Shown: piece by piece, positions 22,876 through 25,799 of the stretch | Layout: each line of letters opens with the position of its first letter | Numbering within the stretch: the stretch's first letter is position 1 | DNA from: Escherichia coli | GTDB lineage: Bacteria; Pseudomonadota; Gammaproteobacteria; Enterobacterales; Enterobacteriaceae | Assembly: GCF_016026235.1 (NCBI RefSeq) | Contig: NZ_CP065613.1 | Strand: one strand, 5' to 3' | DNA length: 64,000 nt | Translations under genes and position numbers: made by a program | The notes under the pieces: model-generated | What the model saw: only the letters and a program-made list of their open reading frames with translations | Databases searched by the model: none | What the model was told of the DNA's origin: nothing

Positions 22876-24207
22876 TTATAGGATAAAACGGCTCAGATCT
22901 TCATCTGCCACCAACGCATCCAGATGTTTGCTCACATAATCTGCGTCAATAGTGATATTTTGACCGCTTAAATCGCTGGCGTCGTAGGAAATCTCTTCCA
23001 TTAAACGCTCCAGAACAGTGTGTAAACGACGAGCACCGATGTTTTCGGTAGATTCGTTCACCTGCCATGCCGCTTCCGCGATGCGTTTAATACCGGAGTC
23101 GGTAAACTCGATATTTACGCCTTCAGTCGCCATCAGTGCTTTGTACTGCACGGTGATAGAGGCATTCGGCTCGGTCAGAATACGCTCGAAGTCGCTGGTG
23201 GTCAGCGCCTGCAGTTCAACGCGGATTGGCAGACGACCTTGCAGTTCCGGGATCAGGTCAGACGGTTTCGCAATCTGGAACGCGCCAGAAGCGATAAACA
23301 GAATGTGGTCAGTTTTGACCATCCCGTGTTTGGTGGAAACGGTGCAACCTTCTACCAGCGGCAGCAGGTCACGCTGAACACCTTCACGAGAAACATCCGG
23401 ACCGGAAGACTCGCCGCGCTTACAGATTTTGTCGATTTCGTCGATAAACACGATCCCGTGCTGCTCAACAGCGTCGATAGCGTCTTGCTTCAGCTCTTCC
23501 GGGTTCACCAGTTTCGCCGCTTCTTCTTCAATCAGCAGCTTCATGGCGTCTTTGATTTTCAGCTTACGCGCTTTTTGCTTCTGACCGCCCAGGTTCTGGA
23601 ACATGGACTGCAGCTGGCTGGTCATCTCTTCCATGCCCGGAGGAGCCATAATTTCAACGCCCATCGGTGCTGCGGCAAGATCGATCTCGATTTCTTTGTC
23701 ATCAAGCTGGCCTTCACGCAGTTTTTTGCGGAATGCCTGACGAGCAGCGGACGGTTCCTGCTGCTGTTCGGTCTGTCCCCAGTTGTTTTTAGCCGGTGGG
23801 ATCAGCACGTCGAGAATACGTTCTTCTGCCAGTTCTTCAGCGCGATAACGGTTTTTCTCGATAGCCTGGACGCGTACCATTTTTACGGCGGCATCGGTCA
23901 GATCGCGAATAATAGAATCCACTTCCTTACCGACGTAGCCCACTTCGGTGAATTTGGTCGCTTCAACTTTGATGAACGGCGCATTCGCCAGCTTAGCCAG
24001 ACGACGGGCGATTTCAGTTTTACCGACACCGGTCGGGCCGATCATCAGGATATTTTTCGGGGTCACTTCATGGCGCAGCTCTTCGTTGAGCTGCATGCGA
24101 CGCCAGCGGTTACGCAGAGCAATCGCCACAGAACGCTTGGCGTTGTCCTGGCCGATGATGTGCTTATCCAGTTCGCTGACGATTTCGCGTGGGGTCATTT
24201 CAGACAT
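22876..24207 (-). CDS. hslU: ATP-dependent protease ATPase subunit HslU
   Basis: 443-aa ORF; Walker A GPTGVGKT. Confidence 0.97.
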
Positions 24208-24216
24208 GGGAGATCC

Positions 24217-24747
24217 TTACGCTTTGTAGCTTAATTCTTCGATGGTGTGGAAATGGTTGGTATAGATGCAAATGTCGCCTGCAATATCCAACGCCTTTTC
24301 AGCAATTTCACGGGCGCTAAGTTCAGTGTTTTCTAACAGCGCGCGCGCCGCAGCCTGGGCGTAAGGGCCGCCGGAGCCGATAGCAATAAGATCGTTTTCT
24401 GGCTGCACCACGTCACCGTTACCGGTGATGATAAGCGATGCAGTTTCATCCGCGACTGCCAGCAGTGCTTCAAGTTTGCGCAGCATGCGATCGGTACGCC
24501 AGTCTTTTGCCAGCTCAACGGCGGCTTTAACCAGATGGCCCTGATGCATTTCCAGTTTACGTTCAAACAGTTCGAACAGCGTAAAAGCATCCGCAGTACC
24601 GCCCGCAAAGCCCGCGATGACTTTGTCGTTGTACAGACGGCGGACCTTTTTCACGTTGCCTTTCATTACGGTATTGCCCAACGTGGCCTGACCATCACCA
24701 GCGATGACCACATGGCCGTTACGGCGTACGCTTACTATAGTTGTCAC
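24217..24747 (-). CDS. hslV: ATP-dependent protease subunit HslV
   Basis: 176-aa ORF ([31 protein letters not shown]...). Confidence 0.97.
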
Positions 24748-24816
24748 GAGCTGACCCCTTGGTTACGAATACAGAGTACAAACCCCGTACAAAAGTACGG
24801 GGCATAATGCAATTAT

Positions 24817-24843
24817 AGATGGGGGGGATTTTGAGGGTTTCAA
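24817..24843 (-). promoter_or_regulatory. Sigma-32 heat-shock promoter of hslVU
   Basis: Minus strand reads TTGAAA-ccctcaaaatccc-CCCCATCTA, matching the sigma-32 -35/-10 consensus; the -35 overlaps the ftsN stop codon. Confidence 0.7.
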
Positions 24844-25799
24844 CCCCCGGCGGCGAGCCGAATGCAGTTTGTATGACCCGCCATCTTCAACCGATTGAGG
24901 GTGCTGTCTGCGTTCTCTTTGCCTTTCACCGGGCCAATGACCACACGATTCCAGCCATTGTTGGTGGTAATTTTTGAGTCAAAGCCTTCGAACGCCAGCT
25001 GAGCACGTACCGTCTCTGCCTGTTCCGCGCCTCTGAACGAACCGCACTGCACCATCCAGCGGCGTTCGTCTTTTTTCTCCGCCGTCGGTTTTGGCGCGTC
25101 AGCGGCACGAGTAACCGGCGCAGCTTGCTGCGGCTTCGACTGCGCGGTCGTGTGCGCAGGGGTTTGCAGCAGATCCTGGTACGGCTGCTGAGTAGAAGCC
25201 GGTTTAGACTGGCGCGGTTGCGCTTGTACCGGCGCGGCTTGCGACGTACGCGTCTGCTGCTGCCAGCTTTGTTCAGTCGTACGCGACTGCTGAGCCAGGC
25301 GTTGCTGTTCCGCTAATTGCTGCGCCTGACGTTGGCGCTGTAGCGTTTGCTGACGCTGTTCCGGCGTCTGTTCATTCCACGGAACCTCAACCAGCTGCGT
25401 TGGCTGCTGGCGCATATCAGCCTGCATTTGTTCAAGAAGCTGACGTTGTTCTGGTGTCAGTTGCTCCGGCGTTTTCACTTCACCACCAGCAGAAGGTTCT
25501 GTGGGCGCACGCACACCCGGCTGGCGACTTTCCAGCTCTTTGATGTAGCGCCAGCGTTCTTCTGGTTTTGGTGGTAGTCCGTTTCCGGTCACTTTCTGGC
25601 TTTGCAGCGTCTCGGACTCTTCTTTCTTGTGATGCGTAATGAAGTACAGACCACCGATAAAGGTCACAAGAACGGCGGCAGCAATAGCGACCATAGCGGG
25701 AGAAACCGCAGGCAGATTTCGTTGCTTTTTCCGTGAGGTGCTCTTTTTTCGCCGCGAAGGTGCCGGTTGGCTGCGGCGTACATAATCTCGTTGTGCCAC
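24840..25799 (-). CDS. ftsN: Divisome protein FtsN (SPOR domain)
   Basis: 319-aa ORF; N-terminal TM segment, Gln/Pro-rich linker, C-terminal SPOR domain. Confidence 0.95.
   Translation of the reverse strand: MAQRDYVRRSQPAPSRRKKSTSRKKQRNLPAVSPAMVAIAAAVLVTFIGGLYFITHHKKEESETLQSQKVTGNGLPPKPEERWRYIKELESRQPGVRAPTEPSAGGEVKTPEQLTPEQRQLLEQMQADMRQQPTQLVEVPWNEQTPEQRQQTLQRQRQAQQLAEQQRLAQQSRTTEQSWQQQTRTSQAAPVQAQPRQSKPASTQQPYQDLLQTPAHTTAQSKPQQAAPVTRAADAPKPTAEKKDERRWMVQCGSFRGAEQAETVRAQLAFEGFDSKITTNNGWNRVVIGPVKGKENADSTLNRLKMAGHTNCIRLAAGG

Follow-up and report, generated by a model that had tools for sequence, protein, structure and literature searches.

Sigma-32 promoters of E. coli reportedly follow the consensus TTGAAA - 13-15 nt - CCCCATNT (Nonaka et al. 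2006, cited in PMC10044804), and classical 5'-terminal stabilisers of mRNA are said to tolerate about 2-4 unpaired nt. At the hslVU (clpQY) operon a promoter of this type is followed by a hairpin in the leader. Expression of a clpQ::lacZ fusion and the level of clpQY mRNA drop in rpoH mutants and not in rpoS mutants, hslVU expression goes up at 42 °C, and a C-to-T exchange in the -10 element (giving CCTCATCT) lowers expression 1.7-fold and abolishes most of the heat induction (Lien 2009, PMC2681174). The same study deleted 40 bp of the leader, the hairpin within it or the leader, and each deletion lowered mRNA and protein; the message devoid of the hairpin decayed faster after addition of rifampicin. 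A variant in which the 3' arm was changed to T residues (S-IR) mimicked the hairpin deletion, while an unrelated complementary stem (R-IR) restored function, and it is thus the structure and not the sequence that stabilises hslV mRNA. An RNase E or RNase III motif, an effect of Hfq or thermosensitivity were looked for by these authors and none was found. The 20-nt inverted repeat they quote, CCCCGTACTTTTGTACGGGG, is identical in sequence to the hairpin described below. Promoter, sigma factor, start site and hairpin function have all been published before, and the RNA element is already in Rfam.

What we add is the relation of this element to the preceding gene, ftsN. The words ftsN and terminator occur zero times in the paper that defined the hairpin (Lien 2009, PMC2681174), and the ftsN 3' end is not discussed there. 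The dual use of the hairpin proposed here is a small synthesis of public data and not a discovery. Our reading of the ftsN-hslVU junction, to which we give a probability of roughly 0.85, is that it combines a sigma-32 promoter, a transcription start at position 24808 and a stabilising leader hairpin, and that this hairpin doubles as the ftsN 3' end. All positions refer to the window, i.e., the whole stretch of 64,000 nt of E. coli DNA that was analyzed; published genome positions were converted by way of the genes of strain MG1655, a window position being the NC_000913.3 position minus 4,097,540. In MG1655 the gene order is menA-hslU-hslV-ftsN-cytR. A query of 401 nt spanning the ftsN/hslV junction had matches in 5425 of 5426 complete E. 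coli genomes, with 100% identity in the top hits, and ftsN is annotated at the junction in 5425 of the 5426 as well as in MG1655. The genes and promoter elements are the following:

24840-25799, minus strand: ftsN coding sequence from the list of open reading frames, 319 aa, C-terminus ...RLAAGG*, ending GGG GGT TGA with the TGA at 24842-24840
24843-24838, minus strand: sigma-32 -35 hexamer TTGAAA, bases 2-4 of which are the ftsN stop codon TGA
24824-24817, minus strand: sigma-32 -10 element CCCCATCT, 13 nt past the -35 hexamer
24821-24827, minus strand: run of seven C reaching from the end of the spacer into the start of the -10 element, a mutational hotspot
24817-24812, minus strand: TATAAT, a perfect hexamer of the sigma-70/sigma-S type that overlaps the last T of the sigma-32 -10 element
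24808, minus strand: main hslVU transcription start, an A, giving a 5' UTR of 61 nt (SMRT-Cappable-seq and dRNA-seq)
24760-24755, minus strand: hslV Shine-Dalgarno sequence AAGGGG, recognized from the sequence and near-invariant in an alignment of 47 sequences
24217-24747, minus strand: hslV (clpQ) coding sequence with its GTG start codon at 24747-24745
22876-24207, minus strand: hslU (clpY) coding sequence, the second gene of the operon, from the MG1655 annotation

Read along the minus strand, the ftsN stop codon and TTGAAA are followed by the 13-nt spacer that ends in the C run, by CCCCATCT and ATAATTGCATTATG, by the hairpin CCCCGTAC-TTTT-GTACGGGG at 24802-24783, and then by TTTGTACTCTGTATTCGTAACC, the Shine-Dalgarno sequence and the hslV GTG. 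The hslVU transcript ends at 4120362 (SMRT-Cappable-seq, PMC6131387). Two plus-strand open reading frames, 24819-24977 (52 aa) and 24535-24807 (90 aa), lie opposite ftsN and hslV and were taken to be spurious.

The earlier note on this DNA had assigned a sigma-32 hslVU promoter to the interval 24817-24845 at a known locus and had proposed that its -35 hexamer overlaps the ftsN stop codon. Both statements hold: the interval covers the promoter exactly, and the hexamer shares its bases 2-4 (24842-24840) with the TGA. A search for TTGAAA-N12-15-CCCCATNT returned a single match in the 64-kb window, as compared to an average of 0.02 in dinucleotide-shuffled sequences, of which 2 in 100 contained any match. 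Two genome-wide maps agree on where transcription begins, and neither moves it away from this promoter, the outcome that the earlier note had named as refuting its view. SMRT-Cappable-seq (Yan et al. 2018, PMC6131387) has the hslV-hslU unit starting on the reverse strand at NC_000913.3 position 4122348, a start backed by 143 reads in M9 and 76 in rich medium. For the dRNA-seq of Thomason 2015, Supplementary Data 4 of PMC10687069 repeats two starts, 4122348 and 4122353, which correspond to 24808 and 24813 in the window. Position 24808 lies 8 nt past the -10 element CCCCATCT and thus within the roughly 6-9 nt expected for sigma-32. Together with the published rpoH dependence, these data support the identification of the promoter as the known E. 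coli hslVU sigma-32 heat-shock promoter. A different start, 71 nt upstream of the GTG (24818 in the window), was given in the defining paper, with primer F5 beginning CATCTATAATT (Lien 2009, PMC2681174). It falls inside the -10 element and disagrees with both genome-wide maps, and for annotation it is of value to set the 71-nt leader of the defining paper against the 61 nt of the two maps.

An overlapping putative -10 element for RpoS has been mentioned, though an effect of rpoS was not found (Lien 2009, PMC2681174). The TATAAT hexamer was also considered as part of a sigma-70 promoter and was rejected: it is located 20 bp from TTGAAA, which is too distant for good use by sigma-70, a sigma-70 scan found no promoter at this site, and the hexamer lies only 3 nt ahead of the main start at 24808. 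The C run of the sigma-32 promoter is a repeated target in heat-adaptation experiments. A 1-bp deletion described as -74/+19 (window position 24821) became fixed in two heat-rescued populations (PMC7750951), and a 2-bp deletion within the run was reported for heat-evolved BM28 strains (PMC10044804).

Downstream of the start resides the hairpin, and the following elements are needed to discuss it:

24802-24783, minus strand: leader hairpin CCCCGUAC-UUUU-GUACGGGG, +7 to +26 of the hslVU mRNA; the stem can be lengthened to +6/+27 by a G-U pair
24802-24745, minus strand: full-length match (1-57/57) to the Rfam family RF02401 'ClpQY_promoter' with 63.6 bits, the gathering score being 42; it takes in the hairpin and the leader down to the GTG

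The inverted repeat CCCCGTAC/GTACGGGG occupies 24783-24790 and 24795-24802, its arms are 100% complementary in an 8-4-8 arrangement with a loop of 4 nt, and six of the eight pairs of the stem are G-C. Lying between the start at 24808 and the GTG, the hairpin is part of the hslV leader, just as the earlier note had stated for 24783-24802. That note had further suggested that the hairpin could affect the structure of the leader. This is right, and the published experiments on mRNA stabilisation had already answered it; the element is the Rfam family given above. As RNA, the hairpin folds at -17 kcal/mol with z = -4.2, which none of 200 shuffled sequences equalled. Weak Rfam matches elsewhere between 24000 and 26000 (mir-1205, isrG, snoZ185, CRISPR-DR56 and anti-hemB) are far under their thresholds and were dismissed as chance. 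An upstream open reading frame starting from an AUG at +4 to +6 (24805-24803) was likewise discarded, since this AUG is not conserved and relatives carry AUUCUG, AUUCAG or AUUACG.

How does the hairpin stabilise the message? From the start at 24808, five nucleotides (counting the G-U pair as paired) or six precede the stem unpaired, and from the minor start at 24813 it is 10-11. The hairpin thus lies beyond the limit of about 2-4 unpaired nt at the 5' end that applies to stabilisers of the ompA/papA type, and the median in relatives is 5. In the pBAD33 constructs, the insert of which begins at 24818 behind a KpnI site, the hairpin is preceded by 16 nt of native and by vector-derived sequence, and the message is still stabilised (Lien 2009, PMC2681174). 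Stabilisation in spite of this extra upstream sequence means that simple capping of the 5' end is not established as the mechanism. A hairpin that acts as an obstacle to the movement of a nuclease from the 5' end may fit the data better than a strict 5'-end cap.

The position of the hairpin in the leader of a heat-shock gene also brings to mind an RNA thermometer or another form of translational control, acting on the accessibility of the hslV ribosome binding site. One of the folds obtained for the 61-nt leader has a second, weak helix between CUCU and GGGG of the Shine-Dalgarno sequence. We consider such a function highly improbable. In the RNA fold the Shine-Dalgarno sequence is free of the hairpin, which ends about 23 nt upstream and is not paired with it, a stem of -17 kcal/mol would not melt at 42 °C, and the published effects are exerted at the level of mRNA, with Lien 2009 stating that there is no thermosensitive segment.

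For a wider comparison, hslV upstream regions were collected from 80 species-representative genomes, most of them from Enterobacterales, some from Vibrionaceae and one from Alteromonadales. The overlap of stop codon and -35 element (GGGGGTTGAAA or a near variant, with the TGA closing a long ftsN frame that ends Gly-Gly) is present in the window and in 67 of the 80 genomes, and in those genomes the spacing from the overlap to CCCCATNT is constant. The overlap is hence conserved in about 68 Enterobacterales. Columns without any variation in a MAFFT alignment of 47 sequences are limited to GGGTTGAAA, to three C and the A belonging to the -10 region, and to a few positions close to the start codon. 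The stems vary in sequence and in length. Enterobacter has CCCUGAGC, Tatumella and Rosenbergiella have CUCCGCGC, and stems of about 15-20 bp occur in Serratia, Yersinia, Rahnella and Photorhabdus. The place of the hairpin is kept, its onset lying 4-7 nt away from the predicted start in 62 of 79 sequences, and its pairing is kept as well: at the eight pairs of the E. coli stem, 86% of the cells in the MAFFT alignment, which was not fitted to structure, are paired, as opposed to 37-54% when the partners are slid by 1-3 columns. Seven of the eight pairs exhibit compensatory changes on both sides, and the observed covariation score was matched in 0 of 500 shuffles. RF02401 scored above its threshold in 11 of 20 further genera tested.

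These comparisons also speak to the idea that the palindrome is a DNA operator, bound by a dimeric protein close behind the start site. The perfect 8-4-8 symmetry of the DNA from +7 to +26 would suit such a protein, but it is the pairing that is conserved and not the sequence, with stems as different as CCCCGUAC, CCCUGAGC, CUCCGCGC and the 15-20-bp versions, and function was rescued by restoring an unrelated stem. An operator is the least probable of all the explanations we weighed.

A mapped 3' end links the hairpin to ftsN, and two further features come into play:

24773-24782, minus strand: tail UUUGUACUCU after the hairpin, ending at 24773, the mapped primary ftsN 3' terminus
24807, plus strand: 3' terminus of an antisense transcript, located 5 nt beyond the palindrome as it folds in this plus-strand RNA

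TRS data from two E. coli datasets contain a minus-strand 3' terminus at 4122313 (peak 4122307-4122321), classified as 'Primary' for ftsN with a 3' UTR of 68 nt (PMC10687069). This is position 24773 of the window, 10 nt beyond the last G of the stem (GGGG-UUUGUACUCU). With the main ftsN end at this position, the whole hslVU promoter, its start and the hairpin lie inside the ftsN 3' UTR. Moreover, the promoter starts right at the ftsN stop codon and thereby leaves no space for a separate ftsN terminator ahead of it. The terminus is significant in all three libraries of the two datasets, and its R values, for which 1 means no read-through, are 0.64 and 0.88, compared to 0.985 and 1 for the terminus just past hslU at 4120358/4120359 (PMC10687069). 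Among the units reported by SMRT-Cappable-seq in PMC6131387 are a cytR-ftsN unit and also a read-through unit ftsN-hslV-hslU. On the opposite strand, Term-seq recorded the antisense 3' end at 4122347 (+) with an average of 1381 reads; the same data, covering three conditions, list no minus-strand 3' end here (Adams 2021, PMC7815308).

The sequence following the hairpin differs between lineages. Tails were scored by a TransTermHP-style formula. The E. coli tail UUUGUACU reaches -4.06 and ranks in the top 0.8% of the 15-mers on the minus strand of the window, yet a terminator scan of the window did not call the hairpin. Most Enterobacteriaceae are without a U-rich tail, and scores amount to -1.8 to -2.6 in Citrobacter, Enterobacter, Serratia and Yersinia, whereas Pantoea, Tatumella and Rosenbergiella carry U5-U7 behind the homologous hairpin, the tails scored, with runs of U6-U7, reaching -4.2 to -5.7. 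In three Photobacterium genomes the arrangement is another one: the ftsN homologue is followed by a canonical terminator (GGATGC...GCATCC-TTTTCTTTT), then by the sigma-32 promoter and then by a small leader hairpin.

Taken together, the hairpin is probably also a leaky intrinsic terminator of ftsN, with some transcripts reading through into hslVU. Since downstream mRNA is higher with the wild-type leader than with the hairpin deletion (Lien 2009), termination can only be partial. We infer that the 3' end at 24773 arises by termination rather than by trimming; it could also stem from short sigma-32-initiated transcripts or from an exonuclease that trims back to the hairpin.

Short transcripts of this kind would be expected if the hairpin were an attenuator of hslVU, where a fraction of the sigma-32-initiated transcripts stops at +36, in a proportion that temperature or other conditions would change. 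Counted from the start at 24808, the 3' end at 24773 comes after 36 nt and could belong to such leader RNAs, strong U-tracts follow the hairpin in some genera, and the density of read starts is slightly higher in the ftsN 3' UTR than in the coding region (0.71-0.81 vs 0.56-0.59; PMC10687069). Nevertheless, ftsN is not an outlier for the ratio of 3' UTR to coding-region signal in any of the three libraries (PMC10687069), the fold of the 61-nt leader shows no evident alternative pairing of the antiterminator type, and Lien 2009 reported no thermosensitive behaviour of the message and a positive net effect of the hairpin. Attenuation therefore appears quite unlikely to us, even if less so than a thermometer.

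More weight is due to the proposal that the hairpin is primarily the intrinsic terminator and insulator of ftsN, which shields the heat-shock operon from constitutive ftsN/cytR transcription, and that its effect on the stability of hslV mRNA is incidental. A primary ftsN 3' terminus mapped 10 nt behind the stem fits this proposal, as does the fact that neither the sequence nor the terminator scan offers another terminator between the ftsN stop codon and hslV. The canonical U5-U7 tails of several Erwiniaceae point in the same direction, and so does the need for a separate terminator at the junction in Vibrionaceae. However, Vibrionaceae keep a small leader hairpin besides that terminator, and what is conserved across Enterobacterales is a hairpin near the start and not a U-tract, the tails of Citrobacter, Enterobacter, Serratia and Yersinia being non-U. 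In addition, ftsN-hslV-hslU read-through transcripts are known, and deletion of the hairpin lowers downstream mRNA instead of raising it. We thus regard a primary role in insulation as unlikely, although it is the strongest of the competing explanations. The leader hairpin is the conserved feature, and in Enterobacterales it has probably come to form the ftsN 3' end as well, more so in some lineages than in others.

In E. coli, then, RNA polymerase with sigma-32 recognises TTGAAA and CCCCATCT and the hslVU mRNA begins at 24808. The hairpin at +7 to +26, within the first 36 nt, raises the level and half-life of hslV mRNA by virtue of its structure, likely by obstructing 5'-end-dependent attack or scanning by RNase E. 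In transcripts arriving from ftsN, the same hairpin together with UUUGU marks the main 3' end at 24773, probably as a leaky intrinsic terminator. A more far-reaching version, which we put forward tentatively and at slightly less than even odds, is that one hairpin serves three transcripts, as leaky terminator for ftsN, as stabiliser for the hslVU mRNA and as 3'-end structure for the antisense RNA. It would have originated when the promoter moved onto the ftsN stop codon in Enterobacterales and the separate terminator that is still present in Vibrionaceae was lost, and the strength of the U-tract, and hence the insulation of hslVU, would depend on the lineage.

The arrangement has consequences for work on either gene. 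Edits to the end of ftsN such as tags, deletions or changes of the stop codon will touch the -35 element, and edits to the hairpin will alter the stability of hslVU mRNA and probably ftsN 3'-end formation too.

Compared with the described systems, the hairpin is the same element as RF02401, matched over its full length, in the identical position before hslV and without structural difference; the Rfam name and Lien 2009 treat this element as an hslVU leader only and do not refer to the 3' end of ftsN. The promoter resembles other E. coli sigma-32 promoters in that both elements are exact, the spacing is typical, the start follows 8 nt after the -10 element and dependence on rpoH is published. 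It differs from them in having its -35 element built over an upstream stop codon and in lying wholly within the 3' UTR of the upstream gene. With the ompA and papA stabilisers (Emory, Bouvet and Belasco 1992; Bricker and Belasco 1999; both cited in Lien 2009) the leader shares a stable hairpin near the 5' end and a structure-based longer life of the mRNA; unlike these, which reportedly have at most 2-4 unpaired nt, the hslVU stem comes after 5-6 nt and works behind vector-derived sequence. Finally, a GC-rich stem of 8-9 bp and a loop of 4 nt are shared with intrinsic terminators. The tail starting with UUU and the TRS 3' end 10 nt past the stem resemble them too, though the terminator scan does not report the hairpin and the Term-seq list has no minus-strand end here. 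In contrast to typical representatives, the U-tract UUUGUACU is short and interrupted, termination would be leaky, and the element is situated downstream of another operon's promoter, so that it is transcribed within the first 36 nt of that operon's mRNA.

Published positions for the start of hslVU, which is transcribed from the minus strand, disagree. Lien et al. (2009; PMC2681174) placed it at window position 24818, inside the -10 element, and the '71 bp' leader found in the literature stems from this assignment. SMRT-Cappable-seq (PMC6131387) and dRNA-seq (starts as reproduced in PMC10687069) both give 24808, corresponding to a leader of 61 nt, and dRNA-seq adds a second start at 24813. As far as the legend of a supplementary figure tells, SMRT-Cappable-seq also revealed an hslU-only transcript originating from an internal promoter not known before and a read-through transcript, hslV-hslU-menA-rraA, that extends beyond the hslU terminator.

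Sites of further transcripts of the operon
hslU region, window 22876-24207 and downstream: sites of the hslU-only and read-through transcripts (SMRT-Cappable-seq, according to the same legend)

On the opposite strand, Term-seq (Adams et al., 2021; PMC7815308) recorded a 3' end at NC_000913.3 position 4122347, equivalent to window position 24807, that lies antisense to the hslV leader and is supported by 1381 reads on average. This end is located 5 nt beyond the hairpin palindrome at 24783-24802 (…GTACGGGGCATAA|TGCAATTATA). As the plus-strand tail following the palindrome is not U-rich (tail score -1.88), the antisense end looks like a hairpin-protected end rather than a classical terminator.

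Seven consecutive C residues at 24821-24827 in the hslVU promoter form a recurrent mutation target in heat-adaptation experiments. A 1-bp deletion in this run was fixed in two populations after rescue at 43 °C (PMC7750951), and BM28 strains carry a 2-bp deletion in it (PMC10044804). A perfect TATAAT is present at 24812-24817, separated from TTGAAA by 20 bp. Each of the deletions shortens this gap towards sigma-70 spacing and likewise disturbs the sigma-32 spacing of the hslVU promoter.

The overlap of the ftsN stop codon with the -35 element is not universal among Enterobacterales, since in Budvicia (hslV upstream regions L044 and L048) the FtsN homologue stops approximately 100 nt upstream of the promoter and the TGA within GGGTTGAAA ends merely a 25-codon frame. 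The leader of Pectobacterium zantedeschiae (L047) measures approximately 173 nt and its hairpin is split by an insertion of about 120 nt. Both hairpin arms, GCCCCG and CGGGGG, are retained and are predicted to pair around the large structured insert, possibly a small mobile element or a repeat lying in the hairpin loop.

In Vibrio sp. Hep-1b-8 (L078), more than 20 tandem copies of the 7-nt unit CTCGCCT directly precede the hslV promoter region on its 5' side. The order in Vibrionaceae is ftsN homologue, separate canonical terminator, sigma-32 promoter (CCTTGAAA...CCCCAGAT) and small leader hairpin.

Features upstream of hslV in Vibrionaceae
Photobacterium (L070, L073, L076), ~60-130 nt upstream of hslV: separate terminator before the promoter
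Vibrio sp. Hep-1b-8 (L078), ~70-220 nt upstream of hslV: CTCGCCT array

Given the separate terminator in Vibrionaceae, compaction of the E. coli type is therefore specific to Enterobacterales.
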